Shown: in pieces, positions 4,825 to 56,446 of the stretch | How positions within the stretch are numbered: the first letter of the stretch is position 1 | Layout: each line of letters begins with the position of its first letter | NCBI GenBank assembly: GCA_963717745.1 | Contig: CAVQXJ010000002.1 | Location: 222,063 to 286,062, forward strand | Direction: 5' to 3' | Length of the DNA stretch: 64,000 bases | From: an uncultured Acidobacteriota bacterium | GTDB taxonomy: Bacteria > Acidobacteriota > Vicinamibacteria > Vicinamibacterales > 2-12-FULL-66-21 | Notes under the pieces: generated by a model | Databases searched by the model: none | Seen by the model: the letters and a program-made list of their open reading frames with translations, nothing else | What the model was told of the DNA's origin: nothing | Position numbers and translations under genes: made by a program

Positions 4825-7248
4825 ATGGCGAGGACCGAATATCTGACGGAGCTCGGGCAGGATGTCGGCTACGCGCTGCGCATGCTGCGCCGCGCACCCG
4901 GCTTCACGCTCGCCGCCTTGACTACTCTGGCGCTCGGCATCGGCGCCAATAGCGCCATCTTCAGCGTTGTCCACGGCGTCCTGCTCGCGCCGCTGCCGTA
5001 TCGTGATGCCGGCCGGTTGTATCGCATCACGACCCTCTATCCGGACGGGACGGCCTACTCCCTCTCGCCACCCGATTTCATGAGCGTGCGAGAGCAAACG
5101 CGAACCCTCGAGCAGGTGGAGGGATTCTCGGGCGGCGTCTACACGATGCTCGACGCCGGCGAGCCGCGCGAAGTGCGAGGGACGAGCGTCAGCGATCGTC
5201 TCTTTGGCCTCCTCGGTGTGGACGTCGCACTCGGCCGAGGTCTGTTGCCGGGCGACACTCAACCGGGGCACGAACGGGTGGCCGTGCTCGACCATGGGTT
5301 CTGGCAGCGGCAGTTCGGTGGCGATCGCAGCGTGCTCGGCCGCAGGATCAGGATCGCCGGCTCGCCGGTCGAGATCGTCGGCGTGCTGGCGCGCGGCACC
5401 CGGTTGCTCGACGCCGCGGATGTGTATACGCCGCTGGTCTACAACGACACGTTCAGCGCGGCGACCGCGAAGGGCAGACGCGGTGAGTTCCTGACGGTCA
5501 TCGGCCGTGCGAAGGCAGGCATCTCGCTCGCGCAGACTGATGACGACCTGCGGCGAATTGGCGGTCAGCTGCAGGTGGCGTTCCGCGAGACCAATCAGGC
5601 GTTGACGTTCAACGCCTTGCCGCTCACCGAGGTGATCGTGGGCGACGTGCGAACGCCGCTGCTCATTCTGCTCGGCGCCGTTGGCTTCGTGTTGCTGGTC
5701 GCCTGCGCGAATGTCGCCAACCTGCTCCTGGCGCGCGCCTCCGCACGTCAGGCGGAGCTGGCGGTCCGATCGGCGCTCGGTGCCGGCCGCGTACGGCTGC
5801 TCCGTCAGCTGCTGACCGAGGCTCTGGTCCTCGGGACCGCTGGTGCCGTGCTGGGCCTGGCGATGGCGTTGGTGGCGACGCGCGCGCTGGTGGCCGCGCA
5901 ACCGGCCGACATTCCGCGGTTGGAAGACGTCGGTGTGAACGGCATGGTCGTCATCGTGACGTTTGCGATCGCGATCGCGACCAGCGTCGGGTTCGGGATG
6001 TTGCCGGCGCTTCAGCTCACCGGCGCGCGCCTGCCGACCGCCTTGCGCGAGAGCACGCGCGGTGGCGCGAGTGTCGGCGGGCAGTGGATGCGATCGGCGC
6101 TGGTGGTCGCCGAGATGGCGCTTGCGGTCGTCCTGTTGATTGGTGCCGGGCTGTTGATCAGGAGCTTCGTCCAGTTGACTCGCGTCGACCCCGGGTTCCG
6201 CGCCGACCAGGCACTCTCGTTCCGAGTCGTGCTCCAGGGCGAACGATATGCCCAGGATGAGCCCACCCGCATTCGCGTCGCGGAGTTCGAGCAGCACTTG
6301 AGACGGTTACCCGGAGTCTCGACGGTCGGCGCCACCAGCCTGCTCCCGCTCAGCGGCCGCGGCGCGATGGTCGGCTTCGCCGTCGAGGGCGCGCCGCCCC
6401 CGCCGCCGAATGTCAATGCCGAAATCGCCTTGGCCAGTGCCACGCCCGACTACCTTCGGGCGATCGGAGCGACGGTCAGGCAGGGCCGCCACTTCAGCGC
6501 TCAGGACGACACCGCTGCGCCGCGCGTCGCGATCGTGAACGAGGCCGCGGTGCGACGATGGTTCGCTGGTCAGAATCCGATCGGCCGCCGGGTCATTACC
6601 AATGGTGCGCCGCGCGAGGTCGTGGGCGTCGTCGCCGACCTGCTGCAGCGAAGCGCCTCGGACCCGGTGGCGCCGATGGTCTTCGTGCCGTTCGCGCAGC
6701 GGACCATCAGGTCGATCAAGATGGCGGTGCGGACGACCGGCGATCCGGCGGCGCTGGCGCCGGCGATTCGCGCCGAGATCCGGGCGCTCGACGCCGATCT
6801 CGCGATTGCCGACATCACACCGATGACACAGCTGGTCCTCCGATCGCTCACCGCGCCGCGCTTCTACACCAGCCTGCTGGCGCTCTTTGCCGGCGTCGGC
6901 CTCGTGCTGGCGGCGATCGGCGTGTTTGGCGTGATGAGTTATGCCGTGGCGCAGCGGGTCCGCGAGATCAGCATTCGTCTCGCGCTCGGCGCACTGCCGC
7001 GCGAGGTGCTGCGGATGATCCTCGGCCACGCCCTCGGCCTGTCCGCGATCGGCGTCGTCGTGGGCCTCGCGGGAGCGATTGGACTCGGACGCGTCATTCA
7101 GGGCCAGCTGTTCGGCGTCGCACTCCTCGATCCCGTGACGTTGGTCGGCGTCCCGCTCGTGCTCGGCGCGAGCGCAGGGCTGGCGAGTTATCTCCCGGCA
7201 CGGCGCGCGATGAAGCTCGATCCAGCGAGCGCGCTGCGCGAAGGGTGA
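4825..7248 (+). CDS. ADOP-family duplicated FtsX/MacB-like ABC permease, paralog 1
   Basis: ORF 4693..7248 trimmed to ATG 4825 (MARTEYL). Has the N-terminal TM motif LALGIGANSAIFSVV, two FtsX-like 4-TM blocks, and a C-terminal DPASALREG. Confidence 0.9.
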   Translation: MARTEYLTELGQDVGYALRMLRRAPGFTLAALTTLALGIGANSAIFSVVHGVLLAPLPYRDAGRLYRITTLYPDGTAYSLSPPDFMSVREQTRTLEQVEGFSGGVYTMLDAGEPREVRGTSVSDRLFGLLGVDVALGRGLLPGDTQPGHERVAVLDHGFWQRQFGGDRSVLGRRIRIAGSPVEIVGVLARGTRLLDAADVYTPLVYNDTFSAATAKGRRGEFLTVIGRAKAGISLAQTDDDLRRIGGQLQVAFRETNQALTFNALPLTEVIVGDVRTPLLILLGAVGFVLLVACANVANLLLARASARQAELAVRSALGAGRVRLLRQLLTEALVLGTAGAVLGLAMALVATRALVAAQPADIPRLEDVGVNGMVVIVTFAIAIATSVGFGMLPALQLTGARLPTALRESTRGGASVGGQWMRSALVVAEMALAVVLLIGAGLLIRSFVQLTRVDPGFRADQALSFRVVLQGERYAQDEPTRIRVAEFEQHLRRLPGVSTVGATSLLPLSGRGAMVGFAVEGAPPPPPNVNAEIALASATPDYLRAIGATVRQGRHFSAQDDTAAPRVAIVNEAAVRRWFAGQNPIGRRVITNGAPREVVGVVADLLQRSASDPVAPMVFVPFAQRTIRSIKMAVRTTGDPAALAPAIRAEIRALDADLAIADITPMTQLVLRSLTAPRFYTSLLALFAGVGLVLAAIGVFGVMSYAVAQRVREISIRLALGALPREVLRMILGHALGLSAIGVVVGLAGAIGLGRVIQGQLFGVALLDPVTLVGVPLVLGASAGLASYLPARRAMKLDPASALREG

Positions 7249-7268
7249 GAAGGAATCTTCGCTCTGTG

Positions 7269-9758
7269 ATGCGCTGGCTCGCCGATCTCCTCGACGACGT
7301 TCGCTATACGTGTCGCACGTTGCGCCACCATCGCACGTTTGCGGTCGGGACCATACTCACCCTCGGACTCGGCATCGGGGTCAACACGGCGGTCTTCAGC
7401 GTCGTCAATGCGCTGCTGCTTCGGCCGCTGCCGGTGAGCGGGGGTGAGCGGCTGGTGGTCCTCGGCAGCCGTGGCTCTGGGACGGCGGCCTTGGGCCCGA
7501 TGTCGTTTGCCGACCTCCAGGATTTTCGAGCCGCGACGCGAGACGTCCTCGACGACATCGCAGGGTATAGCGTCGGTTTCATCGGGCTCGCCCCGGAACA
7601 CGGACCCACCTTCGCGCTGCGCGCTACGGCGGACACGCGTCCTGCCCGCGTGCTGGCGACGTGGGTCACCGGAAACTATTTCGAGCTGCTCGGCATCCAG
7701 CCGGCACTCGGCCGGTTCATTCAGAGCGCCGAAGGAGCGCCGGGACGGATCGACCCGGTCGTCGTGCTGGGTCACGCGACGTGGCGCCAGCGGTTCAACG
7801 GCGACTCGGCCATCGTCGGCAAAACCGTGCGCCTCAACGGTCGAGTGTGCACGATTGTCGGCGTCGTCCCACCAGGGTTCGCCGGTACGTTCGCGTTCTC
7901 CGCATCGGAGGTGTACCTGCCGATCACCTGGGCCCCAGGTTTCCTGCACGATGACCGCGGCGGCCGGATCCTGCACACGCTCGCGCGACTGCGAAACGGC
8001 GCTACTCTCCAGCATGCACAGGCGGTTGCCGATCTCGTCGCAGGCCGGCTGGCGCGGGAGCATCACGAGACCAACGCCCACGTCGGCGTGACGGTAGTGC
8101 CCGAACGCCTTGCGCGTCCGGAAGAGAGCAATGCGCAATCGAACCAGTACGTGGCGGCAGCTCTCCTTGGGCTCGTGGCGCTGGTGTTTGTCGTGGCTGC
8201 GGTCAATGTGACGAGCCTGCTGTTGGTGCGTTTCCTGAGCCGGCGAAAGGAGCTGGCGGTGCGCCTCGCGCTCGGGGCCGGCCGTGCGCGGCTCGTTCAA
8301 CATCTCCTGGCAGAGAGTGCCGTCCTGTGCTGCCTCGGCGGCGTTGCTGGCGTCGCGTTCGGTGCGGCGGCGGCGCGCGCGCTGACGCTGGTGCGGCTTC
8401 CCGGAGATCTCCCGGTTCGTTTCGACTTTTCACTCGATCATCGCGTCGTGGTGTACGGGCTTGCGGTCACCGCGGTGACGGCCATCATCGTCGGCATCAC
8501 GGTGGCGGGCCGTTTCTCGAAGACGACCATAGACGAGGCGCTCCGCGACCGGGGGTCTGGTGCGACTCCGAGTCGGGACGGCGAGCGCATGCGCAAGACA
8601 CTCGTCGTCGCGCAGGTGGCCGTGACCGTCGTGCTGACGCTCGCCGGCGGGTTGTTCGTACGCGGCCTGTCAGCGGCACAACGTGTCGATCTCGGATTCC
8701 TCCCCGAGCGTGTGCTCAACGTCCAGATGGACGTCGGACAGGTGGGGTATTCGGAATCGAAGGGCCGCGCCTTCTTCGATGCCGTAGAGGCTCGCATACG
8801 CGCGCTTCCGGGCGTCGACGCGATGGCCTACGCATTCTCGGTGCCGTTTGGATATGTGAATCTCGGGTGGTCCGTGCACGCCCCGGATCAGCTCGCGGCG
8901 CGGAGAGAACACATCCGCGCCGGCACGAATATCGTCGACCCGCAGTACTTCTCCACTCTGTCGATCCGCATCGAGTCCGGCCGTGGCTTCACACCGGCGG
9001 ATGGGCGAGACGCACCCCGGGTGGCGATCGTGAACCGCCGTCTCGCGGACCTGTTGTGGCCAGATCAGGACGCGATCGGTCGCCGGTTCAAGGAGGTGAC
9101 GGAAGACAGCCCCTGGATGGAGGTGGTTGGCGTCACGCCGACGGGAAAATATCAGTTGCTGTTCGAAGATCCGCTGCCCTACTACTATGTGCCGATCGCG
9201 CAGCACTACACGGCTCTGAGAGTGCTCCACGTCCGCAGCAGGCTGTCTCCCGAGGGAATCACCCAGGCTGTGGAGCGCGCGATTCACGGTCTCGAGCCTG
9301 ACCTTCCGCTCTACGACGTGCAGACCATGACCAGGGCCTTGGACAGTGCGCGCGGCCGGTTCCTCGTGCGCGCGGCCGCTCTTTTCGCTGCGCTGCTCGC
9401 GCTGCTCGCCCTCGTGCTCACCGTGCTCGGACTATACGGAATGGTCGCGTACGTGACGAGCCAACGTACGCAGGAAATCGGCGTGCGAATCGCGCTCGGT
9501 GCCACGGCGCGGAACGTCGTGCAGCTCGTCGGCACCGAGGCAGTCAGGCTCACGTTGCTCGGCGCCGCGATTGGGTTCGCGGGTGCGTACCTGAGCGCCC
9601 CGCTGCTCCGACGCCTGCTGTTCGGTGTGGCGCCGACGGATTGGGTCGCGTTCGCCGGTGCCCTCGTGGGTCTGATCGCGGTGACGGCCGCTGCGACCTG
9701 GATGCCCGCGCGGCGTGCCGCGCGCATGGATCCGCTGCGCGCCCTTCGCTCTGAATAG
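7269..9758 (+). CDS. ADOP-family duplicated FtsX/MacB-like ABC permease, paralog 2
   Basis: ORF 6558..9758 trimmed to ATG 7269 (MRWLADLLDDVRY...LGLGIGVNTAVFSVV). Same architecture as paralog 1; ends DPLRALRSE. Confidence 0.9.
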   Translation: MRWLADLLDDVRYTCRTLRHHRTFAVGTILTLGLGIGVNTAVFSVVNALLLRPLPVSGGERLVVLGSRGSGTAALGPMSFADLQDFRAATRDVLDDIAGYSVGFIGLAPEHGPTFALRATADTRPARVLATWVTGNYFELLGIQPALGRFIQSAEGAPGRIDPVVVLGHATWRQRFNGDSAIVGKTVRLNGRVCTIVGVVPPGFAGTFAFSASEVYLPITWAPGFLHDDRGGRILHTLARLRNGATLQHAQAVADLVAGRLAREHHETNAHVGVTVVPERLARPEESNAQSNQYVAAALLGLVALVFVVAAVNVTSLLLVRFLSRRKELAVRLALGAGRARLVQHLLAESAVLCCLGGVAGVAFGAAAARALTLVRLPGDLPVRFDFSLDHRVVVYGLAVTAVTAIIVGITVAGRFSKTTIDEALRDRGSGATPSRDGERMRKTLVVAQVAVTVVLTLAGGLFVRGLSAAQRVDLGFLPERVLNVQMDVGQVGYSESKGRAFFDAVEARIRALPGVDAMAYAFSVPFGYVNLGWSVHAPDQLAARREHIRAGTNIVDPQYFSTLSIRIESGRGFTPADGRDAPRVAIVNRRLADLLWPDQDAIGRRFKEVTEDSPWMEVVGVTPTGKYQLLFEDPLPYYYVPIAQHYTALRVLHVRSRLSPEGITQAVERAIHGLEPDLPLYDVQTMTRALDSARGRFLVRAAALFAALLALLALVLTVLGLYGMVAYVTSQRTQEIGVRIALGATARNVVQLVGTEAVRLTLLGAAIGFAGAYLSAPLLRRLLFGVAPTDWVAFAGALVGLIAVTAAATWMPARRAARMDPLRALRSE

Positions 9759-14559: not shown

Positions 14560-14684
14560 GAAGGTACCGGATCTCAAAAACGGAGCAACGGAGATAACGA
14601 AGAGAACGGAAAAGAAAAAATATTTTGTCTTCTTCGTTTCCTCCGTTCTCTCCGTTGCTCCGTTTTTGAGATCCGTTCCCTCGA
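14560..14684. repeat. repeat family A copy 1: AT-richer ~125-bp imperfect palindrome
   Basis: 14569-14594 GGATCTCAAAAACGGAGCAACGGAGA is the exact reverse complement of 14649-14674. Shares its termini and inner AACGGAG/AACGAAG units with 26517-26656. Confidence 0.9.
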
Positions 14685-19467: not shown

Positions 19468-20064
19468 ATGCCCCCACTCACGCCGGACCCCACGAAGATC
19501 AAGACCTTCCGCACCGCGGCGGCGCTCGCGCGCTGGCTGCACCGGAACCACGGGCGCGAGACCGAGCTCTGGCTGAGGGTCTACAAGAAGGACTCCGGCA
19601 TAGCATCGATCACCATCGCCGAGGCGCTGGACGAGGCGCTGTGCTGGGGATGGATCGACGGCATCCGAAAGGCGCTGGACGAGCAATCGTTCCTGCAGCG
19701 CTACTCGCCGCGGCGGGCGAAGAGCGTCTGGAGTCAGATCAACCGCGACCACGTCGCCAGGCTGACGGCCGCGGGACGCATGACGCCGTTCGGTCAGCGG
19801 CAGATCGACGCCGCCAAAGCCGACGGCCGGTGGGACGCCGCCTACGCGCCGCTCCGCAGCGCGACGGTCGAGACCATCCCCGACGATCTGCGCGCCGCCA
19901 TCGAGGCCAGCCCTCTGGCCCGCAAGACATTCCGGACGCTGGGACGTCCGAACCTGTTCGCCCTGGCCTTTCGTACGAACCAGATGAAAACCGCCGCTGG
20001 CCGCGCGAGGAAGATCGCCGCCCTGGTGGCGATGCTGGCGCGTGGCGAGACGATCGTGCCCTAG
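19468..20064 (+). CDS. YdeI/OmpD-associated family protein
   Basis: ORF 19330..20064 trimmed to ATG 19468. ELWLRVYKKDSG...EALCWGWIDGIRKALDEQSFLQRYSPRRAKSVWSQIN is typical of YdeI-like proteins. Confidence 0.75.
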   Translation: MPPLTPDPTKIKTFRTAAALARWLHRNHGRETELWLRVYKKDSGIASITIAEALDEALCWGWIDGIRKALDEQSFLQRYSPRRAKSVWSQINRDHVARLTAAGRMTPFGQRQIDAAKADGRWDAAYAPLRSATVETIPDDLRAAIEASPLARKTFRTLGRPNLFALAFRTNQMKTAAGRARKIAALVAMLARGETIVP

Positions 20065-20460
20065 CCTAGCCTGGCGCCGTCGCTGACATCCACACCCACC
20101 CGAGGTCCATCGTAGGAGAAAGGCTGACGGCGATCCCGAAGGGGTCGGCTGGACGACGGCCGCCGGTGCGACCGGGCACGCGACATGCACTCGGCTTTGA
20201 ACAGAGATCCCCGCGTCAGACACTGCGGCAATGCCCACGATGATTTCGAGGTCAGCCGCAATAGGTGAGTGCGCCATAAGCGCACGAACCTGTGCGCACA
20301 CAGCCGTGCACGTGGGCGGTTTCGGCCGCATGGCCGCAGAGCTCCGGGGCCATCTGTCGAGAGGAATGACGACCGTTCGATGCGCTGGCGTGAATATCGA
20401 GAAAGCACCCCGCCGGCGCGGACGCGGTCGCGCACGAAACGCGCGGTGTGGCGAAGGGGC

Positions 20461-20991
20461 GTGTCCCGGCCTGGTGGCCTGAGGCGATCGATCATCGGTG
20501 TCGTCGTGCTGATGTGCGGCATCACCTCGACCGCTCAGGACGTCACCGGGCCTGCATTGAAGGCCGCTTTCGTGTATCAGTTGCCGAAGTTCACCGAATG
20601 GCCGCCCCCGGCCATCGCCCCCGACAGTCCGTTCTCACTGTGTGTCCTTGGCGAAGCCGTCGTGGGCGAGGCCTTCGAACGGATGGTCAAAGGGCGCGAC
20701 TACGGCGGACGTCGAATCGCCGTTTCCCGGCTCGCGCCCGGAGCGACGGCCCTGGGCTGCCACGCGTTGTATGTCGCGCAGGGCGCGACCGGCGTGCAGG
20801 CGGTCCTCGCGGAGGTCCGCGAGCGGCCGGTGCTGACGATCAGCGACATCGACGGCTTCACCAAGCTCGGCGGCATCACGCAGTTGTATTTCGATGGCGG
20901 TCAATTACGGCTGTTCATCGACACTGCGGCCGCGAACCGCGCCGGGCTCAAGATCAGCTCGCGCCTGCTGAAACTCTCGAAAGAGCCATGA
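20461..20991 (+). CDS. YfiR-family (DUF4154) periplasmic protein
   Basis: LKAAFVYQLPKFTEWP...FSLCVLGE...PVLTISDIDGFTKLGGITQLYFDGGQLRLFIDTAAANRAGLKISSRLLKLS. Start uncertain (20380 or 20461). Its stop overlaps the next start (ATGA). Confidence 0.8.
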   Translation: MSRPGGLRRSIIGVVVLMCGITSTAQDVTGPALKAAFVYQLPKFTEWPPPAIAPDSPFSLCVLGEAVVGEAFERMVKGRDYGGRRIAVSRLAPGATALGCHALYVAQGATGVQAVLAEVRERPVLTISDIDGFTKLGGITQLYFDGGQLRLFIDTAAANRAGLKISSRLLKLSKEP

Positions 20992-23028
20992 GTCATCGCT
21001 ACGCGTTCAAGTCACTCGCTCGACGTTGCGGCGCGGTAATGCTGCTGGCGCTGCTCGGCGCCGCGGCGCCCGCGTCCGCCCAATCCTCGCTGCCCGACCT
21101 CAACATCGAAGAGCTGATGAAGCTGGACGGCGGGCAGGTCTTCGGCGCGTCAGAGCGCCTCCAGCCCGTCACCGAGGCGCCGTCGTCTGTCTCATTCGTG
21201 ACCGCCGAAGACATCCGGCGGCACGGCTACCGCACGCTCGCCGAGATCCTGCGTGGGGTGCGAGGTCTCTATGTGACCGACGATCGCAACTTCAGCTTTA
21301 TCGGAGCCCGCGGCTTCGGCAAGCCTGGCGACTACAACAGCCGGATCCTGCTATTGATCAACGGCCACCGGGTCAACGACAACGTGTTCGGGCAGGCGGA
21401 GATCGGCGCCGAGTTCGGGCTGGATCCGTCCACGTTCGAGCGGGTCGAGATCATTCGTGGCCCCGCCTCCTCCCAGTATGGCGACAGCGCTTTCTTCGCT
21501 GTCGTCAACGTGATCACCAAGACCGGCGCGTCGATCGATGGGGGAGTGGTGACGGCCGAGGTCGGGATGCTCGGCACTCGCACGACCCGGGCGAGCGCCG
21601 GACGGCGATTCGCCAACGGCGTCGACCTGGCCGTCTCGGCCGCCTTGGGCCACAGCGACGGCAACGGGCGGCTGTATTTTCCGGAGTTCGATGCGCCGGA
21701 GACCAACCACGGCATCGCCCGGAACCTCGATGCCGAGAGCGTCCGTCAGTTCTATTCGCGGCTGTCGTTCAACAAGGTGACGGTGACCGCGGCCTATGGG
21801 ACCCGGACTCGCGAAGTGCCGACCGCATCGTTCGGCACGGTCTTCAACGAGCAGGCGTTCCCCGAGCAGACGACCGATCGTCATACGCTGGTCGATGCCG
21901 AATATTTGCGGACGATCCGCGGCACGAAGGCGGCGTTCCGGGTGTCCTTCGACCAGTTCTCGTACGACGGCGACTATCCGTTCGCCGGCGACGAGAGCCG
22001 GCCGCTCCTGCTGGGCCGCAACACCGTGGTCGGCTCGCGCTGGAGCGCCAGCGCACGCGGGACGCGGACGCTGCCGGGACGGCAGATCCTGACGGCCGGC
22101 GCCGAGTTCATCGACAACTTGCGCCAGGATCAGAGCAGCGTCTTCCTCGACTCCCCAGGCGGCGGCGTGCAGGACGTGCTGGTGGATGCTCCACGCTCGT
22201 CGCGTCAACACGCGCTCTATTTTCAAGACGAGATCCGCATCAAGGATTCGATCATCCTGAACGGCGGACTGCGCTACGACGGCTACGAGCAGTTCACCCG
22301 GGTCACGCCGCGCGCCGCGTTGATCTTTCTGCCCTCGGCCAACCAGTCCTTCAAGTACCTGTTCGGGCGCGCCTTTCGCGCGCCGAGCGCCTACGAGAGC
22401 ACCACGTTCTACTTCGGCGACTCGGTGGAGCAGCTCCAGCCCGAATCCATCGATACCCACGAGCTGGTGTGGGAACGCTACTTCAACGACGCACTGCGCA
22501 CGTCGGTGTCGACCTATTGGTACAAGGCGGAGCGTCTGCTCACACTGGTACCCGACGACACCACGTTTCTGGGGTCCCGGTACGTCAACGCGGGGGAAGT
22601 CCACGCCTCGGGGGTCGAGCTCGAAGGGCAGCTCCGCATCACCAGCAACGCGCAGGCGCACTTCAGCTACGCGCTGCAGCGCACCGAAGATCAGGACTCG
22701 CAGACCGAGCTTCCCAACTCCCCGCGTCACATGGCGAAAGGTCGGCTCAGCATTGCCGGTCCGTCGCGTGGATCTTCGATCGGTGTCGAAGGTCTGTTCA
22801 TGAGCAGCCGACAGACGCTCCTCGGTTCGCGCCTCCCACCCGCCGGCACGGTGCACCTGACGGTGATCCAGCCGCTCGGCCGGGCATGGGATCTGCTCGT
22901 TCACCGCCCGGAACCTGTTCGACGTGACCTATGCCGATCCGGCGTCGAGCGCCCACCGGCAGGATGCAATCACACGGAACGGCCGGACCGCACGCGTCGG
23001 TCTCACCTGGAAGTTCTGGAAACCCTAG
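20988..23028 (+). CDS. TonB-dependent outer-membrane receptor; reading frame broken about 45 codons before the end
   Basis: Signal peptide plus plug (EAPSSVSFVTAEDIRRHGYRTLAEILRGVRGLYV). The canonical C-terminus FTARNLFDVTYADP...GRTARVGLTWKFWKP* is encoded in the +1 frame from about 22900 to 23028. Confidence 0.85.
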
Positions 23029-23195
23029 TCCCCTGGAAGGGTGATGACTCGCCCAATTCCCGGGCGGGGCATCCCGGTTGGCGGCGTTGCTCATCGCTCA
23101 CATATGTCCAATATGCTCGCTCTTCGCGCCTTGCCAGCCGGGCGCCGCGCTCCGGGATTTAGGCAAGTCATCACCCTTCCATTGGACGGGACGCC
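23025..23195. repeat. repeat family F copy 1: TIR-bounded ~171-bp element with conserved ~100-nt core
   Basis: Core 23058-23157 matches 61461-61559 at about 84/100 by eye. Inner perfect 15-bp IR at 23035-23049 / 23166-23180. Outer arm 23179-23195 resembles the 61573-61592 TIR. Confidence 0.85.
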
Positions 23196-23990
23196 ATGAC
23201 AATCGCATCGCATCCCCCTCCGAATGCGTTGTCGCCGCTCGGACGGGCTGAGGATTCTCCACCGGCCGCACCGGCCTCGACTCATTTCATCGGCCTGGTC
23301 CTCGACGACGATCCGGACCTGCTGCAGGCCAGCTACGCGCTGCGCTATCAGGTGTATTGCCGCGAGCGGCACTTCCTGTCACCGGACGACTATCCCGATC
23401 AGCTCGAGACTGACGCGTTCGACCAGCATGCGATTCACGTGGGTGTGATCAACGCACAGAGAGAACTGGCGGCCACCGCGCGGCTCATACAGCTCACGCC
23501 GGCGGGGCTGCCGTCGTTCGATCACTGTACTTTCTATGCCGGGGTCAACGTCTTGCGCGACCTCGACCGCCGTGTGGTCGAAGTGTCGCGGCTGTCGGTC
23601 AGCCGGACCTATAACCGGCGTGCCGGCGACGATCATTTCAGTCTCGGGAGCGCCCCGCCGCGCACTGACGGCGGGGAGCGTCGCAGCGGCGGCGTGCTGG
23701 TGATGACGCTTTACAAGGCGCTGTATCAGGCGTCAAAACGCCGCGGGATTGCCAACTGGATGGCGGCGACCGAGCGTTCGCTGCAGCGGCTGGTCACCAG
23801 GAGCGGGTTCCCCTTCCGGCAGATCGGGCCCGAAACCGACTATTACGGTCCGGTGTCTCCCTACCTGTTGGATCTGTCGGAATTCGACGCCAACATCATG
23901 AGCGGCCGGTTTCCTCCATTGAACGATTTCATGGACGGCCTCGAACCGGAGTTCAGGCCGGATGGCGCCCCGGCCCCCGCCGCGGTATGA
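23196..23990 (+). CDS. GNAT-fold N-acyl amino acid synthase / LuxI-FeeM-like acyltransferase (family often annotated PEP-CTERM/exosortase-associated acyltransferase)
   Basis: LRYQVYCRERHFL...DAFDQHAIHVGV...ATARLI...VEVSRLSVSR...LYKALYQASKRRGIANWMAATERSLQRLV. Identified by family recollection, not a search. Confidence 0.7.
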   Translation: MTIASHPPPNALSPLGRAEDSPPAAPASTHFIGLVLDDDPDLLQASYALRYQVYCRERHFLSPDDYPDQLETDAFDQHAIHVGVINAQRELAATARLIQLTPAGLPSFDHCTFYAGVNVLRDLDRRVVEVSRLSVSRTYNRRAGDDHFSLGSAPPRTDGGERRSGGVLVMTLYKALYQASKRRGIANWMAATERSLQRLVTRSGFPFRQIGPETDYYGPVSPYLLDLSEFDANIMSGRFPPLNDFMDGLEPEFRPDGAPAPAAV

Positions 23991-25345
23991 GCCGGATCGA
24001 TCACGACGCCAACGATCGGGTGCTGCGCGCGTTTCAGCATGCCGCCGGCCTGCCGTGGTACCGCACGCTGCTCGACGAGCACGGTGTGCGCCCGCCGGAC
24101 ATCACCGACGCCGCCAGCTTCATCGATCGTTGCCCGGTGTTGAACAAGAGCAACACCTTCGATCGCTTTCCCCTGCACGAGCTCGCGCCGCGGGTCTCGA
24201 TGTCCGAGCTCGCCAGTGTGCTCACGAGCTCCGGTCACGGTGGGCGGTTCTCGTTCGGCCTGACGACGCGGAAGGATGCCGGCGAGAGCGCGTCGGTCAT
24301 CGACTACGCGCTCGATCGCGCATTCGCGGTCGAATCGCGCCCCACCCTGGCCATCAACTGCCTGCCGATGGGGGTGACGTTCTCGTCACGGGCGATGACG
24401 GTGGCCACGGTCAGCGTGCGGGAGGACATGGCAGTGGCGCTGGTGCGCGCGTTCGGCGGCTACTACGAACAGATCCTGCTGGTGATGGATCCGCTGTTCG
24501 CCAAGCGGCTGACCGATTACGCGGCGGCGGAGGGGCTCGACTGGAGCCGGTATCGGATGCAGGTGGTGATCGGTGAAGAGGTATTCGGCGAGCACTTCCG
24601 CGAGTACCTCGGGAGGTGCCTCGGCCTGCATCCCGATCGGCCGGAGGACGGCTACGTGATGTCGTCGTTCGGGGTTGGCGAGCTCGGCCTGCACCTGTGC
24701 TACGAAACCCCGGCGACGATCGCGCTGCGGCGCGCGATCCGCAGCGACGCGGCGCTGGCCCGCGATCTCCTCGGCGGCTCGCACGACGAGGGCGCGGTGC
24801 CGGCGATCCTGAGCTACGAGCCACGCCGGACCTTCATCGAAAGCGTCGACCCCGATCCGCACGGCTACGGGTGGCTGACGGTCTCGATGCTCGATCCCGA
24901 GCTGCCGGTGTCGCTGCTCCGCTATCAAACCGGCGACACCGTCAAGATCCTCGAGCGCGATGCCGCGGTCGAGGCGCTGCGGAGTCACGCCGCCGATGCG
25001 AGCGCGCTGCCGCAGGATCTGCTGGCGCTGCAGGGGCGGGAGAAGGATCGCCTTCCGAACGGCTCGCACGTCGCGGTCTACAAGGATGCGCTGTACGCCG
25101 ATCCGGCGATTGCCAGGCAGGTGACCGGCGCCGTCCGCTTGACGTTCACGGGTTCCGACTGCACCGTGCACGTGCAGTTGATACCGGGTGCGACCGCGGA
25201 CACCGGTCTCACCGGGCGCTTGATCGAGGTGCTGCCTGCGGCGGCGCGCCCGGCCGACGTGGTGTGGTGGTCCTACGAGCGCTTTCCGTTCGGGATGACG
25301 CTGGACTACGAGCGCAAGTTTCGACAGTACGTGGGCGGGGTCTGA
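23987..25345 (+). CDS. adenylate-forming enzyme, phenylacetate-CoA ligase / coenzyme F390 synthetase-like
   Basis: ATGA start-stop overlap with the acyltransferase gene. SVLTSSGHGGRFSFG (P-loop-like), VVIGEEVFGEHFREYL, LLRYQTGDTVKIL. Confidence 0.75.
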   Translation: MSRIDHDANDRVLRAFQHAAGLPWYRTLLDEHGVRPPDITDAASFIDRCPVLNKSNTFDRFPLHELAPRVSMSELASVLTSSGHGGRFSFGLTTRKDAGESASVIDYALDRAFAVESRPTLAINCLPMGVTFSSRAMTVATVSVREDMAVALVRAFGGYYEQILLVMDPLFAKRLTDYAAAEGLDWSRYRMQVVIGEEVFGEHFREYLGRCLGLHPDRPEDGYVMSSFGVGELGLHLCYETPATIALRRAIRSDAALARDLLGGSHDEGAVPAILSYEPRRTFIESVDPDPHGYGWLTVSMLDPELPVSLLRYQTGDTVKILERDAAVEALRSHAADASALPQDLLALQGREKDRLPNGSHVAVYKDALYADPAIARQVTGAVRLTFTGSDCTVHVQLIPGATADTGLTGRLIEVLPAAARPADVVWWSYERFPFGMTLDYERKFRQYVGGV

Positions 25346-25358
25346 CGGACCGCTGAGA

Positions 25359-25463
25359 CCCCGCCTGTCAAGGGACAAGGGACAAGGGAGAAAGACAAGG
25401 GAGAACTCCCGGATGTGGGTCGAGTAGTAGGAGCTTGTCCCTTGTCCCTTATCCCTTGTCGTT
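25359..25463. repeat. repeat family B copy 1 (hairpin form, GGGACAA/GGGAGAA heptamer arms)
   Basis: CCCCGCCTGTCAAGGGACAAGGGACAAGGGAGAAAGACAAGGGAGAAC, then a loop, then CTTGTCCCTTGTCCCTTATCCCTTGTCG. The right arm overlaps the last codons and stop of the O-methyltransferase gene. Confidence 0.85.
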
Positions 25464-26492
25464 GCCGCGCGGCTTGCGCGCGGCAACGATTCCCCGCGCG
25501 GCCGCGCCCTCGGTGTAGCGGCAGCCGGAAAACCCCGCCTCGACCAGATACCGCTCCATCTCCGCGGTCGAATAGCAGCGCCCCTCCGACGCGTGCATCA
25601 GCAGCACCGAGTATTCAGCCACGTGCAACGGGCCGGTCTTGGTGGCGTTCAGGAACGCATCATGGACGATGACCAGCCCTCCGGGGGCGAGTGCGGCGAA
25701 CGACTTGTTCAGGAGGTCGGTGACGGTCGCGACATCCCAGTCGTGGAGCACGTTCGAGAACAGATGCACGTCCGCACCGGCGGGCAGCGGATCGACTAGC
25801 ATGTCGTTCGCGATCACCGAGACGCGATCGGCGAGGCCCCGCTTCGCGATCGCGGCGGCGGCGACCCGGTCGACCGGAGGCTTCTCGAGCACGGTGCCCC
25901 GCAGGTGCGGGTGGTGGGCGGCCAGCGCGCAGGCGTAGATCCCCGATCCTCCTGCGATATCGAGCAGGTGCTGGTGCGGCCGCAGGTCGACGGCGCGGGC
26001 CACGAACTGCGAGAGATAAATTCCGCGGCAGTCCATTGCCGCGGTGAATGCCGCGGCGAACTCCTCGCGCTCCATCGACTTGTGCCAGTCGTCCTTGGCC
26101 TGGTGCGTTCCCCAGTTCGCCGGTTTGCCGGTGCGCAGCACGGTCAACAACTCCGCGGCGACCGGGCGATCCGCGACCGTCGGGTAGTAGGGGCCGAGAT
26201 ACCAGGGTGACCCCTTCACGAGATGGTCGCGCGCGGTATCCGTCACGGCATAAACGCCGTCGGCTTCGCGCACCAGGCCCATCGCGGCGAACAGCGTCAG
26301 CATCACGTCGGCCGGACGCGGCGTGATGCCGAACGTCGCGCACAGCTCCGCGAGTGTCGATGGCTGCCTGGCCAGCGCCGAGAACAGGTCGAGATGCAGC
26401 CCGGCGATCAGGAGATCGGGCGCGTGCAGCGCGTCGCGATAGCGGTAGAGCAGCGTCGGGTCGGTGGCCGGCGACGAGAGGAAGTCGCTCAT
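25449..26492 (-). CDS. family-2 (COMT-like) SAM-dependent O-methyltransferase with N-terminal dimerisation domain
   Basis: LLDIAGGSGIYACALAAHHPHLRGTVLEKPPV...DRVSVIANDML...DVHLFSNVLHDWD...LAPGGLVIVHDAFLN. Confidence 0.8.
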   Translation of the reverse strand: MSDFLSSPATDPTLLYRYRDALHAPDLLIAGLHLDLFSALARQPSTLAELCATFGITPRPADVMLTLFAAMGLVREADGVYAVTDTARDHLVKGSPWYLGPYYPTVADRPVAAELLTVLRTGKPANWGTHQAKDDWHKSMEREEFAAAFTAAMDCRGIYLSQFVARAVDLRPHQHLLDIAGGSGIYACALAAHHPHLRGTVLEKPPVDRVAAAAIAKRGLADRVSVIANDMLVDPLPAGADVHLFSNVLHDWDVATVTDLLNKSFAALAPGGLVIVHDAFLNATKTGPLHVAEYSVLLMHASEGRCYSTAEMERYLVEAGFSGCRYTEGAAARGIVAARKPRGNDKG

Positions 26493-26516
26493 TGTCGAGA
26501 CGTTCGGAGATGGTCG

Positions 26517-26656
26517 GAGGTACCGGATCTTAAAAACGGAGCACCGGAGCCAACGAAGAAAACGGAGACGTCACTAGTGTTTTGGTTTCCAAAAGAAATG
26601 TCTTTTCCGTTGCCTTCGTTGGCTCCGTTGCTCCGTTTTTGAGATCCGGTATCTCC
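26517..26656. repeat. repeat family A copy 2: ~140-bp imperfect palindrome
   Basis: The left arm GGAGGTACCGGATCTTAAAAACGGAGCACCGGAGCCAACGAAGAAAACGGAGACG pairs with 26601-26656 with few mismatches. Confidence 0.9.
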
Positions 26657-26690
26657 GCACTCGACCTCCGGTCCGACGTCTCGCCAGAGC

Positions 26691-28506
26691 TCAGAACGCG
26701 TCGGGGACGGTCACCGGAATCCGGCCGGTGAGGACCTGCATCCATCGCCAGGCCGCGTTGGTGAGGATCACGATCACCGACACCATCATCATGATCGTCA
26801 GCCCGGTGTTGAGGTAGCCCTGGAAGTGCAGGGCGGGATTCGGTCCGATCGCCATCGGCCAGAAGTTGTCTGCACGCTCAGCACGCCCGCGGTCAGGGTG
26901 GTCACCGCCACGAACGAGAGCGGCAGCAGCGTGACCCACGCATAGCGCGCCTTGCCGCTGTTGATGATGATCGTCGTGCCGACCGCGAGCGCGACCGAGG
27001 CGAGGAGCTGGTTGGCGATCCCGAACATCGGCCAGATGGTGCTGATGCTGCCGGTCCAGATGAAATAGCCCCAGGCGCACACCACCAGCAGCGTGGACAC
27101 CACCGATCCGGGAATCCAATCCTGTCGGGCCATCGGCGCGTAGAACTGACCGAAGAACTCCTGCACCAGAAAGCGGGCGACCCGGGTGCCGGTGTCGATG
27201 GTGGTGAGGATGAACAGCGCCTCGAACATGATGGCGAAGTGATACCAGTAGTCCATCAGGCCGCGCATGCCGGGCAGGCCGGTGAAGATCTGCGCGATGC
27301 CGACCGCGAGCGAGACCGCGCCGCCGGGGCGGCCGGCGACGGTCTCGCCGACCGCGCTCTCGAGCTGCGGCAGGTTGACCACCGGAATGCCGAGGGTGGC
27401 GAAGGTGGCGGGCGAGGTGTTGATGGCGAAGTAGTCGCCCGGGTGCATCGCGGTCGCGGCGACGAGCGCCATGATCCCGACCAGGCCCTCGATCAGCATC
27501 GCGCCGTAGCCAATCGGCCGGATGTCGCTCTCGCGGTCGATCATCTTCGGCGTGGTGCCGGAGGCGATCAGGGCGTGGAAGCCGGAGATCGCCCCGCAGG
27601 CGATGGTGATGAAGGCGAAGGGAAAGACCGGTCCCGGAATGATCGGCCCGCCGCCGGCGGACGAACGGGCCGATCGCCGGCATCTGCAGCACCGGGTTCA
27701 CCACCATCACCGCGATCACGAGAAAGATGATGGTGCCGATCTTCATGAACGAGCTGAGATAGTCGCGCGGGCAGAGCAGCAGCCAGACCGGCAGCACCGA
27801 CGCGATGAAGCCGTAGATGCCCATCGCCACGATCAACTCGTTCGCGCGACAACTGGAAGAGCGGCCCCCACTCCGACGCGGCGATCGGCTTGCCGAGGAT
27901 CACGGCGAGCAGCAGGCCGGCCACGCCGATCGCGGTCGCCTCGGCGATCCGCCCCTTGCGGAAGCGGTACATGTAGAGGCCCATGAACAGGGCCAGCGGA
28001 ATCGACGTGCCGATGGTGAACGCGCCCCAGGCGCTCTCGTGCAGGGCGTTCACGACCGCGAGCCCGAGGCCGGCCAGGGCAATGACGATGATGAAGAGGA
28101 TCGCGACCGCCGCGGTGGCGCCGGCGACCGGCCCGATCTCTTCCCGGGTGATCTGCGCGAGCGATCGTCCTCCCCGCCGGGTCGAGGCCCAGAGGATGAT
28201 GAAGTCGTGGACCGCACCGGCCAGGCAGACGCCGGCGACCAGCCAGATCAGGCCCGGCGCCCAGCCGAACTGGGCGGCCAGGACCGGCCCGATCAGCGGT
28301 CCGGCGCCGGTAATTGCGGCAAAATGATGACCGAACAGCACGAAGCGGTGGGTCGGATGATAATTCTGCCCATCATTGCGCAGGTGCGCCGGGGTGATGC
28401 GCCGATCGTCGAGGGCCATGATCCGGGCCGCGATGAAGGCGCTGTAGTAGCGATACGCGATCGCGAGGATACAAAGGATGGGCAGGATGAGGTACAGAGC
28501 GCGCAT
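26691..28506 (-). pseudogene. cstA: carbon starvation protein A (CstA) gene with three frame disruptions
   Basis: CstA-like sequence is spread over ORFs 27568..28506, 26691..27836 and 26798..27544 ([57 protein letters not shown]). Frame switches near 27845, 27660 and 26872. Confidence 0.85.
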
Positions 28507-53406: not shown

Positions 53407-56320
53407 ATGACCAGGTACGTCGTTCGGTGTGTGTTGGCGTTGCTCCTCGGCGTAGCTCCGGGCTACGCGCAGCAGGGAACCACGGAAGTGCGCGGCCGCG
53501 TACTCGACGCGCAGGGCGCCATGTTGCCGGGGGTCACGGTGAACGTGCGCAACCAGGACACCGGCATGTTCCGCGAAACGATCTCGAACGCCGACGGCAC
53601 GTTCTTCGTCAGCGGGATCGTGCCGGGACGGTATGAGATCGCCGCCGAGCTGCAGGGATTCAAGAAATTCCTGCGCCGGGACGTGGTGCTGGAGATCGGA
53701 AAGACCGCCACGGTCGACGTGCCGCTCGAAGTCGGCCAACTCTCGGAAACGGTGAACGTGTCCGCCGACTCGCCGCTGATCGACACGAGCTCCAAGGAAG
53801 TCGGCGGCAACATCACCGGACGCGAGCTCGTCGATCTGCCGTCGATCAACCGCAACTTCATCGGGTTCATCGGGCTGCTGCCGGGAATCGTACCCAGCAT
53901 CAGCACCGAATCGTTCGGCTCGGACTCGATTTCGGTGAACGGCTCCGACCCGCGGAACAACAACTACATGCTCGACGGCGGCAACAACAACGACGACGTC
54001 ATCGGACAGCGGGCCGGGACCCAGGCCCGGACCGCGCTCGAATCGGTCCAGGAGTTCCAGGTCATCACCAACCAGTTCGACGCCCAGTTCGGGCGCACGA
54101 CCGGCGCGATCATCAACGCGGTGACCAAGAGCGGCACCAACGTCTTTCACGGCAGCGCCTTCGGCTTCGCTCAGGACGCCGATTGGACCGCCAAGGACTA
54201 TTTCGCCAGGACCCGCGAGCTGAGCAAGCCGGACACGCAGCGGCGCGAGTTCGGCGGCACCCTCGGCGGTCCGATCGTCAAGGACCGCGCTCACTTCTTC
54301 GGCAGTCTCGAGCGCGTCATGATCGATCGCGGTGCGGCGCTCGTGTTTCCGAGCCGGCCGGATCTCAACTGGAGCCCGACCACGCAGGACCGGGTGTGGA
54401 ACACGCTCGCGAAGTTCGACCAGCAGCTGAGCGCGGGACAGACGTGGAGTCTGCGCTACCTGCGCGAGGCTCTCTCCGCAACGGAACCAGGCCATCGGCC
54501 AGGTGGCGCCCGGCGCGATTCGAGAAGAGGACGACAAGGATCAGACCGTGGTCGCCGCCGTGTCGTCGGTGTTCGGCAACACCAAGCTGAACTCGCTGCG
54601 GATCGGCTGGACGCAGGAGGACGTGTCGTTCGGCAATCCCTGCTTCAACGGCAATGGGCGCGACCAGGCCGCCTGCGACCCCACCCTGGCGTTCCAGACC
54701 TTCACCGACCAGCAGGCCAACACCGCGCAGGCGCGCGTGAACGACGCCTACCAGATCGAGAACACGTTCACCTGGTTCGTGCCGAACAAGGGCGGCGATC
54801 ACGACATCAAGCTCGGAGCGCAATACGAGTACATCGAGGCCGACAATCTGGCGCAGGACAACTTGAATGGCACCTTCTCGTTCGGCCAGAACGACCTGCC
54901 CTTCGACCGCAACAATCCGCGCACCTATCCCGATCGCCTGACTATCCGCGTGCCCGGCCAGGGGCGCGTCTTCGAGAAGGCGCACTACTTCTCGGTCTTC
55001 GCGCAGGACAAGTGGAAGCTGACCAACCGGGTCACGGCCACGATCGGCCTCCGCTACGATCGCGAAGAGATTCCCGTCCCGGAGCGGAACAATCCGGACT
55101 TTGCCGACGTGAACGACTACCCGGTCGACGGTGACAACTTTCAGCCGCGAGTCGGCGTGTCCTACAGCCTGGATCAGGCCGGCCGGCGGCTGGTCCGCGC
55201 CGGATACGGCCGCTTCTACGACAAGACGCACTTCGAGATCATCGGTGGCCTGTTCAACAACGGGCTCTTCTCCGAATCGTTCACGGTCAACTTCCCGACC
55301 ACCGCGGCGGATCCCGGCCCGCGCCTCGGACAGTTCCCGACCGACCCGTTCCTCGTGAACGGACCGGTCCTCAATCGCGAGCTGCTGAACCAGCGGTTCC
55401 CCCCCGGCAGCGCGCTGAGGAACGCCGGCAACATCACGCTCGACAATCCGAACCGCGAAATTCCGCGATCGGATCAGGTGTCGGTGGGCTATGAGCACCA
55501 GATCGGCGGGACGATGTCTGCCAGCGCGGATTTCGTCCACGTGGCCGGCCGCGGCCTGTTCATGACCTTCGACAAGAACAAGGGGGTGCGTACGACCACG
55601 GTGTCCACCAGCCCGGTCGTCCGCCCCGATACCACGCTCCAGGCGGTCAACACGTTCATCAACGTCGGGGAGACCGAGTACGACGCGCTGCTGCTGCAGC
55701 TCGAAAAGCGGCTCGCGCGCGGGTTCAGCGCGCGCGTCTCGTACACGCTGTCGTCGGCGCGGGGCAACACCAGCTCGAATGGCTCCGGCGCGATCAACTT
55801 CCAGGCTGGGCAGGACCTGAATCTGGGCCTCAACGAAGGAGCCAGCGACTTCGATCGCCGTCACAACCTCGCCGTCAGCGGGCGCCTGCTCGTGCCCTAC
55901 ACTCACGGGATGACGTTCAGCTGGGTGGCACGCGCGCTCAGCGGGCTGCCGTTCACGCTCACCAACAACACCATCGACGTCGATCGCAACGGCACGCTGT
56001 TCGATCCCATCGCTGCCGGAACGTATACCGGCGGCGGTACGCGTGCCGCCGACAACTACTCGGCGGACTTCGACGGCGGACGCAACGGCGCTCGAGGCCC
56101 GGGCTTCTTTCAGCTGGATACGCGCTATGGGTGGCGGCTGCCGCTCGGCCAGGGCCGGACGCTCGACGTCTCGGCCGATGTGTTCAACCTCACGAATCGC
56201 GCGAACTTCGCCAATCCGAGCGGCAATCAGGGCGCGTTGGCGACCTTCCTGGTGCTCTCGGCCCTGCGCGACGGCGCCGCGCCGATGACGCTCCAGGTCG
56301 GTGCGCGCTTGGGGTTCTAG
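53407..56320 (+). CDS. TonB-dependent receptor with CarboxypepD_reg-like N-terminal domain; frame broken near 54470
   Basis: MTRYVVRCVLALLLG signal. GRVLDAQGAMLPGVTVNVRNQDTG...DGTFFVSGIVPGRYEI. Plug region. Sequence continues from ...WSLRYLRE (frame of 53074 ORF) to SPQRNQAIGQVAPGAIREEDD (frame of 54503 ORF). Ends ...LQVGARLGF. Confidence 0.85.
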
Positions 56321-56329
56321 CGGCTGAAC

Positions 56330-56446
56330 CCCCCCGCGTGTCAAGGGAGAAGGGAGAAGGCAAAAGGGAGAACTGACGGATTCGCGCCAAGAAATAGGAG
56401 ACTCCCCCTTCTCCCTTCTCCCTTTTCCCTTGTCGGCGTCAGGGGG
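56330..56446. repeat. repeat family B copy 5 (full hairpin, ~43-nt arms, ~30-nt loop)
   Basis: The left arm CCCCCGCGTGTCAAGGGAGAAGGGAGAAGGCAAAAGGGAGAAC pairs with the right arm CCCCCTTCTCCCTTCTCCCTTTTCCCTTGTCGGCGTCAGGGGG. Confidence 0.9.

Follow-up and report, generated by a model that had tools for sequence, protein, structure and literature searches.

The 64-kb stretch of DNA analysed here (the window; G+C 65–71% throughout), from a soil acidobacterium, carries, between positions 20461 and 26492, the gene of a synthase of N-acyl amino acids (NAS) and, overlapping it, the gene of an adenylate-forming enzyme with the PaaK fold, which we refer to as the synthase and the ligase. They are flanked by genes for a YfiR-like periplasmic protein, a TonB-dependent receptor and an O-methyltransferase, with two hairpins in the intergenic spaces:

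20461–20991, + strand: YfiR-like periplasmic protein (DUF4154); PF13689, 129.4 bits; signal-peptide-like N-terminus; stop codon overlaps the receptor start (ATGA)
20988–23028, + strand: TonB-dependent receptor (plug and beta-barrel); plug 72 bits, barrel 124 bits; frame broken near 22892
23028–23187, no strand: hairpin repeat of a REP/MITE-like family; imperfect inverted repeat with 55-nt arms, minimum free energy about −101 kcal/mol
23196–23990, + strand: N-acyl amino acid synthase; TIGR03694, 165.5 bits; PF13444 and PF21926; stop codon overlaps the ligase start (ATGA)
23987–25345, + strand: PaaK-fold adenylate-forming (ANL) enzyme, 452 aa; AF2/Foldseek fold match and ANL motifs
25369–25460, no strand: hairpin with (ACAAGGG)n arms; 24-nt arms, 92% complementary
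25449–26492, − strand: COMT-type O-methyltransferase; PF00891, 100.9 bits, and PF08100; convergent to the ligase

An earlier reading of the DNA letters alone (the sequence-only reading) had proposed five open reading frames (ORFs) here, and an ORF check of the window found them at the same coordinates. Both peptides that it quoted from the acyltransferase (RYQVYCRERHFL and EVSRLSV) occur in the translation, and the two ATGA overlaps that it described are present in the DNA, as gagccATGAgtc at 20988–20991 between the YfiR-like and receptor genes, and as cggtATGAgcc at 23987–23990 between those of the acyltransferase and the ligase. Its family calls for the YfiR-like protein, the receptor, the acyltransferase and the methyltransferase were upheld by Pfam and NCBIfam, and its description of the remaining protein as a PaaK-like adenylate-forming enzyme was borne out by ANL motifs together with a Foldseek fold match. 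That reading had overlooked the break in the receptor frame, the hairpin that precedes the acyltransferase gene, the frame changes of the neighbouring cstA gene and the lack of the sensor kinase that is the usual companion of the YfiR-like and receptor genes.

The synthase–ligase pair

The acyltransferase passes the curated hidden Markov model (HMM) of the NAS family, TIGR03694, with 165.5 bits against a cut-off of 111.95 (NCBIfam), the match covering residues 29–236, and contains the Pfam domains Acetyltransf_5 (PF13444) and FeeM (PF21926); the family assignment of the sequence-only reading is thereby sustained. Its AlphaFold 2 (AF2) model (pLDDT 78.5) retrieves BjaI, TofI, FeeM (2G0B), RpaI and LasI as the top Foldseek matches, with E values of ~1e-8, and an alignment of 20 homologues shows that both the E129-x-S131-R132 core and R50 are invariant. 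Given the LuxI/FeeM-like fold matches and the invariant E-x-S-R block, the protein is a member of the NAS family, for which the name used by both JGI and NCBI is 'PEP-CTERM/exosortase system-associated'. Pfam gave no match of the window synthase to PF00765 (Autoind_synth) at E ≤ 0.01, and in the synthases of relatives one faint and one unqualified match to this family were recorded. There is also a weak likeness to OlsB (E 2e-4), whose NCBIfam HMM gives 21 bits (cut-off 350). Residues 141–162 of the synthase (window positions ~23616–23681) constitute a 22-residue, family-specific insertion that is predicted to be disordered (pLDDT below 50) and is bordered by the invariant or near-invariant residues R141, R142, R162 and R163; it may bind a phosphate-bearing donor or the ligase.

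The ligase has no Pfam match at E ≤ 0.01, and the HMMs for PaaK proper give 27.4 bits against a cut-off of 646.3 (TIGR02155) and 26.8 against 700 (NF041878). A sequence search of the PDB chains returned only a marginal match to PaaK (E 0.24) and, therefore, placement of the enzyme required a fold search. The AF2 model (pLDDT 81.8) displays the two-domain ANL fold and matches PaaK1 (2Y27; E 3e-19, TM 0.69/0.73), with NatL2, AjiA1 and ClxA also among its structural neighbours. The ANL core motifs A3, A5 and A7, the A8 hinge and the A10 lysine are all present: across 20 homologues, the invariant stretches are TSSGxGG (T80-S-S-G-x-G-G), SSFGxGELG (S226-S-F-G-x-G-E), RYQxGD (R312-Y-Q-x-G-D), GR (G350-R) and a C-terminal DYxRKF that contains the lysine (R443-K444-F), and the P-loop is a variant one, SSGHGGRF as against SSGTTGKP. 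The identity to PaaK proper is 14–18%, and the annotation 'phenylacetate-CoA ligase' is probably wrong for this protein. At 50% identity and E ≤ 1e-30, 369 clusters were found among 1.84 billion representatives; the ligase represents a compact family of its own, PaaK-fold, uncurated and partner-specific to the synthase. A second, distant ligase subfamily (32–33% identity) is seen in loci L126–L128, L155–L159, L161 and L163, where it retains all of the motifs and adjoins synthase homologues; in L126–L128 its position is upstream of the synthase, and the other strand carries the receptor and YfiR-like genes.

The extent to which the two enzymes travel together was assessed in a ligase-anchored set of 81 loci, comprising 80 from a profile-guided scan (one genome per species) plus L001, a close relative of the window, and spanning Acidobacteriota, Beta-, Gamma- and Alphaproteobacteria and Verrucomicrobiia. 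Locus counts were taken from tblastn; an initial clustering of ORFs had chained the synthase, ligase and receptor through overlapping or fused ORFs. By BLAST, a NAS homologue lies no more than 10 kb from the ligase in 76 of the 81 loci. In a 77th, from Archangium (L079), a FeeM-family NAS located 2.7 kb downstream of the ligase was missed by BLAST and found with Pfam, and the other four exceptions are short contigs. In the reverse direction, of the 42 NAS-anchored metagenome loci that extend at least 1.5 kb downstream, 36 also encode the ligase, and the NAS proteins of the six that do not are more distant (38–51% identity). Moreover, the two enzymes exist as in-frame fusions of 711–771 aa: nine of the 120 best ligase matches are single proteins of 711–756 aa, with the NAS N-terminal and the ligase C-terminal, and fusion representatives occur in the 50%-identity library as well (P0247 and P0284). 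In the fusions, a short linker joins the two parts and no carrier domain intervenes (Pfam scans covered five of the nine, and two were read across the junction). The 4-nt ATGA stop/start overlap of synthase and ligase is kept in relatives. The synthase and ligase are, on solid evidence, a conserved core of near-obligate partners that are sometimes one polypeptide, and their near-universal co-occurrence and natural fusions back the functional coupling that the sequence-only reading had proposed.

In the Archangium locus (L079, 1438–10464), the genes run from a sigma-54 activator that has a PocR sensory domain, and an alpha/beta hydrolase, through the ligase and two ORFs with no Pfam match to the FeeM-family synthase; this locus is a myxobacterial variant of the pair. 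The possibility that the ORF at 6903–8267, after the ligase, is a second ligase was tested and dismissed.

Genomic contexts of the pair

In the Beta-, Gamma- and Alphaproteobacteria, neighbour clustering and NCBIfam place the pair inside XrtA/PEP-CTERM exopolysaccharide loci. Its neighbours there include PrsK, PrsR, PrsT, a TIGR03013 (EpsB_2) glycosyltransferase and HprK-related kinase A, as well as the exosortase-A-associated hydrolase 1 and acyl-CoA ligase; the place directly after the ligase of the pair is taken by a THxN-family PEP-CTERM protein. By regular expression (regex), PEP-CTERM tails were detected in 38 loci (one Nitrosospira locus being counted twice), all of them proteobacterial and usually right beside the ligase, and no PEP-CTERM gene was detected within 10 kb in the acidobacterial loci. 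In the Nitrosospira loci (L005/L009, 674–9151), the ligase and synthase are on opposite strands with a PEP-CTERM protein between them; next come a PAS hybrid histidine kinase and a REC-GGDEF response regulator, so that signalling genes again stand beside the pair. Rhodocyclaceae/Burkholderiales loci have the pair near a DUF1302 outer-membrane protein, a LolA-like protein and a MacB/FtsX-type ABC transporter (for example, L057 6694–8121, L060 5031–5900 and 13537–14760, and L061 5530–6330), neighbours that, from their sequence families, would suit the export of a lipid product.

The window presents a different setting. The C-terminal PEP-CTERM regex found no PEP-CTERM tail in it, and Pfam scans of 28 window ORFs found no gene for an exosortase, a LuxR-type receptor, an acyl carrier protein (ACP) or a PEP-CTERM protein; several of these ORFs have no match of any kind, so absence is not proven, and the statement of the sequence-only reading that such genes are missing holds as far as the regex and Pfam scans reach. 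The association with PEP-CTERM and exosortase genes that the family name implies was found neither for the window synthase nor in the acidobacterial loci, and this name mismatches the genomic context of the acidobacterial clade. There, the Vicinamibacteria-type pair has left the PEP-CTERM/exosortase loci for an envelope-sensing cassette.

Two components of this cassette are present in the window. The YfiR-like protein matches DUF4154 over nearly the whole profile (PF13689, 129.4 bits); it scores just under the cut-off of the model for TOL_0243-type YfiR-like proteins (NF053591; 115.5 versus 125) and far under that for true YfiR (NF053586; 35.7 versus 85). The receptor has both the plug and the 22-strand barrel (PF07715, 72 bits; PF00593, 124 bits), and its NCBIfam score with the corresponding receptor model is 105.6 against a cut-off of 645. 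Genes for the two proteins are linked to the pair in 20–21 genome loci and 27–33 metagenome loci, and the genome loci are titled Acidobacteriota, Vicinamibacterales (including Vicinamibacteraceae) or Luteitalea, with the single exception of an unclassified bacterium. The usual third component, present in 12 genome and 11 metagenome loci, is a kinase of ~650–950 aa with the Pfam architecture CHASE8-HAMP-HisKA-HATPase-REC, sometimes with Hpt; the kinases of relatives score 192–199.5 bits, against a cut-off of 194, with NF053592 ('sensor histidine kinase, YfiR-like protein-associated'). Because NF053590 (TonB receptor, TOL_0244), NF053591 (YfiR-like, TOL_0243) and NF053592 (kinase) are neighbouring curated models, the trio is an already recognised, curated cassette, one with no function assigned to it.

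The pair and the trio occur together in at least six orders or orientations, including kinase–YfiR–receptor–NAS–ligase, kinase–NAS–ligase–YfiR–receptor, NAS–ligase–YfiR–receptor–kinase and forms with an inverted cassette. Since these arrangements are found at ligase identities to the window of only 52–65%, the adjacency has been kept through rearrangement, which speaks for a functional link and against simple inherited synteny. The proposal that the YfiR-like and receptor genes belong with the pair is supported: they are co-conserved with it across Acidobacteriota while the gene orders are shuffled.

Of the five genes that the sequence-only reading had grouped, four passed this check of neighbourhood co-conservation and the O-methyltransferase did not. 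The latter adjoins the pair only in close relatives, at ligase identities of about 75% or more (~75–87%; L086 is one of these), and it is absent from the other ~150 loci examined, which retain the pair at 32–65% ligase identity. The order methyltransferase–cstA–tricorn-like gene recurs in the one relative contig that reaches that far, and the methyltransferase is a bystander, a neighbour by local synteny. Its adjacency and its retention in the closest relatives would be expected if all five genes, the O-methyltransferase included, formed one small-molecule pathway, but the gene is convergent, on the opposite strand and separated from the ligase by a hairpin, and the genes downstream of the pair elsewhere are different ones (a fatty-acid desaturase, SUI1 and PEP-CTERM proteins). 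A pathway of all five genes is largely refuted by the neighbourhood analysis, and the chance that it exists is very slight.

A further 20 window ORFs are, by Pfam, ordinary housekeeping and transport genes. A scan for sigma-70 promoters found nothing, and terminator-like sites occur at chance level. An Rfam scan of 19500–26800 revealed no real RNA family; its sub-threshold matches, on both strands, to plant 'miRNA precursors' correspond to the long intergenic hairpin repeats. The hairpin at 23028–23187 has family copies at 61461–61553 in the window, at 11823–11921 in L007, and two in L015. That at 25369–25460 is low in G+C, lies between the convergent ends of the ligase and methyltransferase genes, and has partial copies near 36698, at 56333–56435 and near 60227; a bidirectional terminator is one possibility for it, a third repeat family another. 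A second hairpin family is represented at 26515–26657, between the methyltransferase start and the cstA end (59-nt arms, 86% complementary); it is kept at the orthologous site in a relative (L086, 3207–3354), and another window copy is located at 14562–14675.

A possible function and its alternatives

The gene assignments and their linkage are solid, and from these we infer a chemistry and a signalling role. We regard it as an even call whether the pair makes a lipid of the N-acyl amino acid type that is linked, in Vicinamibacteria-type Acidobacteriota, to the envelope-sensing cassette. We give an even chance at best to the proposal, drawn from sequence and gene context, that a free acid is adenylated by the ligase and its acyl group then passed to the synthase, via CoA or directly; this is the order of reactions that the sequence-only reading had put forward, and it is plausible. 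In such a scheme, the ligase would use ATP to convert a free carboxylic acid, either fatty or aryl, into an acyl-adenylate, and would hand over the acyl group as a CoA thioester or directly, given that there is no carrier-protein domain in the pair or in the fusions. The synthase would then move the acyl group onto the amino group of an amino acid, the lipid product would reach the cell surface or the medium, and the receptor/YfiR-like/kinase cassette would sense or re-import it; alternatively, the cassette would control its production. The absence of a carrier domain supports the notion that the ligase feeds the synthase, and the fusions suggest 1:1 channelling between the two. Additionally, the products described in PMC9762135 have (S)-3-hydroxy acyl chains, which point to CoA-derived donors. 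A more ambitious version, which we consider distinctly unlikely, would be an autoinducer-like circuit that dispenses with LuxR: a released N-acyl amino acid, or a derivative of it activated by the ligase, would be taken up by the receptor, bound by the YfiR-like protein and read out by the CHASE8 kinase, and the proteobacterial pair would feed into the control of PEP-CTERM proteins and exopolysaccharide by PrsK/PrsR. Were this circuit to exist, its ligase would be the first adenylate-forming enzyme in nature shown to feed a synthase of aminolipids or N-acyl amino acids.

A number of points weigh against a lipid that is made in this way and sensed by the cassette. The known substrates of the PaaK family are small aryl acids, not fatty acids, and TonB-dependent receptors import rather than export. 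The fold search cannot tell CoA-dependent from ACP-dependent relatives of the synthase, with BjaI, TofI and FeeM all matching at ~1e-8, and gene linkage cannot tell sensing of the product from regulation of its production. Characterised members of the synthase family are active in E. coli with no ligase, which is thus unneeded for basal activity, and the ligase might act after the synthase. The remaining points are specific to this genome. A tblastn search found no kinase homologue in the 64-kb window, and there is no adjacent CHASE8 sensor in it, whether a YfiN-type cyclase or an NF053592-type kinase; the closest relatives (L001, L086, L087 and the P0005 contig) share this four-gene form with no adjacent kinase. 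DNA alignments with L001 and L087 attribute the break in the receptor frame near 22892 to a 1-nt insertion: by three-frame translation, the true C-terminus (..ARNLFDVTYADP..TWKFWKP, followed by the stop codon) has a different frame and runs to 23028 instead of 23162, the last ~45 residues lying in the +1 frame, and the receptors of relatives are intact at 662–679 aa. Finally, the gap between the receptor and the synthase, which measures 7 nt in L001, is 165 nt in the window and is filled by the 160-nt hairpin at 23028–23187. With the kinase absent, the receptor frameshifted and a hairpin between receptor and synthase, the sensing link may be weakened or lost in this genome.

Taken further, these same features (the lack of a kinase in the window and beside the pair in its closest relatives, the insertion in the receptor and the hairpin at the site of the 7-nt gap) could mean that the locus is decaying here, with the kinase lost, the receptor a pseudogene, the gene pairs uncoupled by a mobile hairpin and, at most, the synthase and ligase still at work. 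We consider this highly unlikely. The cstA gene (26691–28506, − strand) switches frame at three points (from 1 to 2, then to 0 and back to 2) against the intact 604-aa CstA of a relative, a pattern that looks more like assembly indels than selective decay; on account of it, there is a serious possibility that the frameshifts in the window are assembly errors, the other being that there are several pseudogenes. Moreover, the frames of the YfiR-like gene and of the remainder of the receptor are intact, with 83–84% identity to L001, and a kinase could be encoded elsewhere on the 360-kb contig. Elsewhere in the window, an OMP_b-brl_4 barrel protein (54431–56320, + strand) matches positions 188–823 only of its 838-position profile, and its N-terminal part may lie in another frame, as a further frameshift.

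The order of the two reactions could also be the reverse, which is the main rival to our preferred reading. The ligase may adenylate the carboxylate of the N-acyl amino acid and couple it to a further nucleophile. This nucleophile could be CoA, another amino acid, an amine or hydroxyl group, or a polysaccharide and, in Proteobacteria, the PEP-CTERM protein encoded next to the ligase; a more elaborate lipid or a lipid-anchored product would result. NatL2, AjiA1 and ClxA, which are among the structural neighbours of the ligase, are PaaK-family enzymes that form esters or amides without CoA, and an N-acyl aromatic amino acid resembles a substrate of the aryl-acetate type. The pattern of co-occurrence is consistent with this order, as the ligase was never found without a NAS, short contigs aside, and six of the 42 NAS loci are without a ligase, and so is the PEP-CTERM protein directly beside the ligase in most proteobacterial loci. 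It is also consistent with reports that members of the synthase family need no ligase for their own products: an enzyme annotated in this family, expressed alone in E. coli, yields long-chain N-acyl amino acids or amides (PMC9762135), as do type I NAS enzymes according to PMC4897644, which cites Craig et al. 2011; the same paper calls the physiological role of NAS enzymes unclear (PMC4897644). On the other side, the substrate of the ligase is not identifiable from sequence, the order of the domains in the fusions leaves the reaction order undecided, and no candidate acceptor gene is common to the proteobacterial and acidobacterial contexts. On balance, we judge an action of the ligase downstream of the synthase to be rather unlikely.

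The nature of the product raises a further alternative, namely, that it is a structural membrane aminolipid, like the lyso-ornithine lipid of OlsB, and not a signal, the cassette then being an envelope-stress sensor that switches lipid remodelling on. In the YfiBNR system, YfiR responds to envelope stress, and the weak similarity of the synthase to OlsB in NCBIfam (E 2e-4) points in the same direction. Additionally, PF13444 includes aminolipid N-acyltransferases (PMC11631085), a Neisseria meningitidis enzyme annotated in the same family as the synthase makes N-acyl-ornithine and N-acyl-lysine (PMC9762135), and the MacB-type ABC transporter, LolA-like protein and DUF1302 protein near the pair in Rhodocyclaceae are consistent with outer-membrane lipid traffic. 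However, no O-acyltransferase of the OlsA/GlsA type is conserved beside the pair, a family of 369 clusters is small and patchy for a core membrane-lipid route, and it is not obvious what a TonB-dependent receptor would do in lipid remodelling that is driven by stress. Overall, we consider a purely structural role unlikely.

The pair has two alternative genomic homes. Because sensor kinases are near it in both, a signalling or surface-lipid role is favoured over one in protein sorting, and the swap of sorting genes for a receptor/sensor cassette hints at a lipid signal, not a new type of pathway. The YfiR-like/receptor/kinase trio, curated and functionally blank, would gain a candidate ligand class.

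Relation to known systems

The synthase family and its PEP-CTERM link are already known, both having been published in 2011, as far as can be gathered from the citing passages in PMC11072679, PMC4897644 and PMC9762135; in a methanotroph, a NAS gene upregulated in the polysaccharide band was picked for disruption (PMC11072679). The sequence-only reading had not recognised the combination of genes at the locus. This is correct in part only: the NAS family with its PEP-CTERM link and the NF053590–NF053592 trio had each been recognised, and it is the joining of the pair to the trio that seems to be new, being apparently undescribed in the searchable literature. The exosortase-free acidobacterial context of the pair likewise seems to be undescribed there. 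We found no description, in the same literature, of the dedicated PaaK-fold partner or of the fusions; the 2011 NAS paper lies outside it and may mention the ligase as a neighbour. Literature searches on DUF4154 with TonB-dependent, PEP-CTERM with phenylacetate-CoA ligase, CHASE8 with YfiR, and YfiR with TonB-dependent receptor and histidine kinase returned nothing relevant. According to a 2024 review, it is not established that aminolipid synthesis makes use of adenylating enzymes (PMC11631085), and an almost obligatory, sometimes fused, PaaK-fold partner bears on whether such enzymes feed this synthesis.

The closest relatives of the window synthase are the TIGR03694 enzymes, with which it shares the HMM match, the LuxI/FeeM fold and the E-x-S-R core, and whose proteobacterial representatives beside the same ligase also pass the HMM, with 184–197 bits. 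It differs from these in its surroundings, as the window and the acidobacterial loci examined are without a PEP-CTERM protein, exosortase or Prs regulator, and its neighbours in the window are instead the YfiR-like protein and the TonB-dependent receptor. FeeM (2G0B) is matched in fold (E 1.4e-8, TM 0.75 on the target) and through the Pfam FeeM domain. FeeM, the N-acyl tyrosine synthase encoded in the fee cluster, depends on acyl-ACP and receives its acyl group from the dedicated ACP FeeL, whereas the pair comes without an ACP, the synthase being coupled or fused to an adenylating enzyme instead; the low-confidence 22-residue insertion at 141–162, with its conserved arginines, is a further difference. 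The CoA-dependent LuxI types (BjaI, RpaI and MesI) are the best or near-best structural matches of the synthase, and their use of acyl-CoA is mirrored by the suggestion of the sequence-only reading that a CoA ligase feeds the synthase. However, these enzymes acylate S-adenosylmethionine to give homoserine lactones, pair with LuxR and are not fused to ligases, whereas the window synthase has no Pfam match to Autoind_synth and no LuxR was found among the scanned ORFs.

The OlsB/OlsA and GlsB/GlsA systems resemble the pair in their first step, in which a PF13444-type N-acyltransferase forms an N-acyl amino acid (PMC11631085); the second gene of the window pair, however, encodes an adenylating enzyme, not an O-acyltransferase, and the synthase reaches only 21 bits of the 350 set for the OlsB HMM. 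The cassette recalls both YfiBNR (TpbB) and the NCBIfam trio in that the DUF4154 protein adjoins a CHASE8 sensor in relatives, and in that the YfiR-like and receptor genes, which are neighbours in relatives, share 4 nt (ATGA) in the window. Relative to YfiBNR, the output in relatives is a hybrid histidine kinase rather than the diguanylate cyclase YfiN, and the lipoprotein YfiB is replaced by a TonB-dependent receptor; relative to the NCBIfam trio, the window proteins fall below the cut-offs (115.5 versus 125, and 105.6 versus 645) and the kinase is absent from the window. Lastly, the ligase shares with PaaK, NatL2, AjiA1 and ClxA the two-domain ANL fold (TM ~0.7) and the A3, A5, A7, A8 and A10 motifs. 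It is set apart from the PaaK ligases by an identity of only 14–18%, by scores of ~27 bits against cut-offs of 646–700, by the lack of a Pfam match and by its variant P-loop, and its genomic role is tied to the NAS rather than to phenylacetate catabolism.

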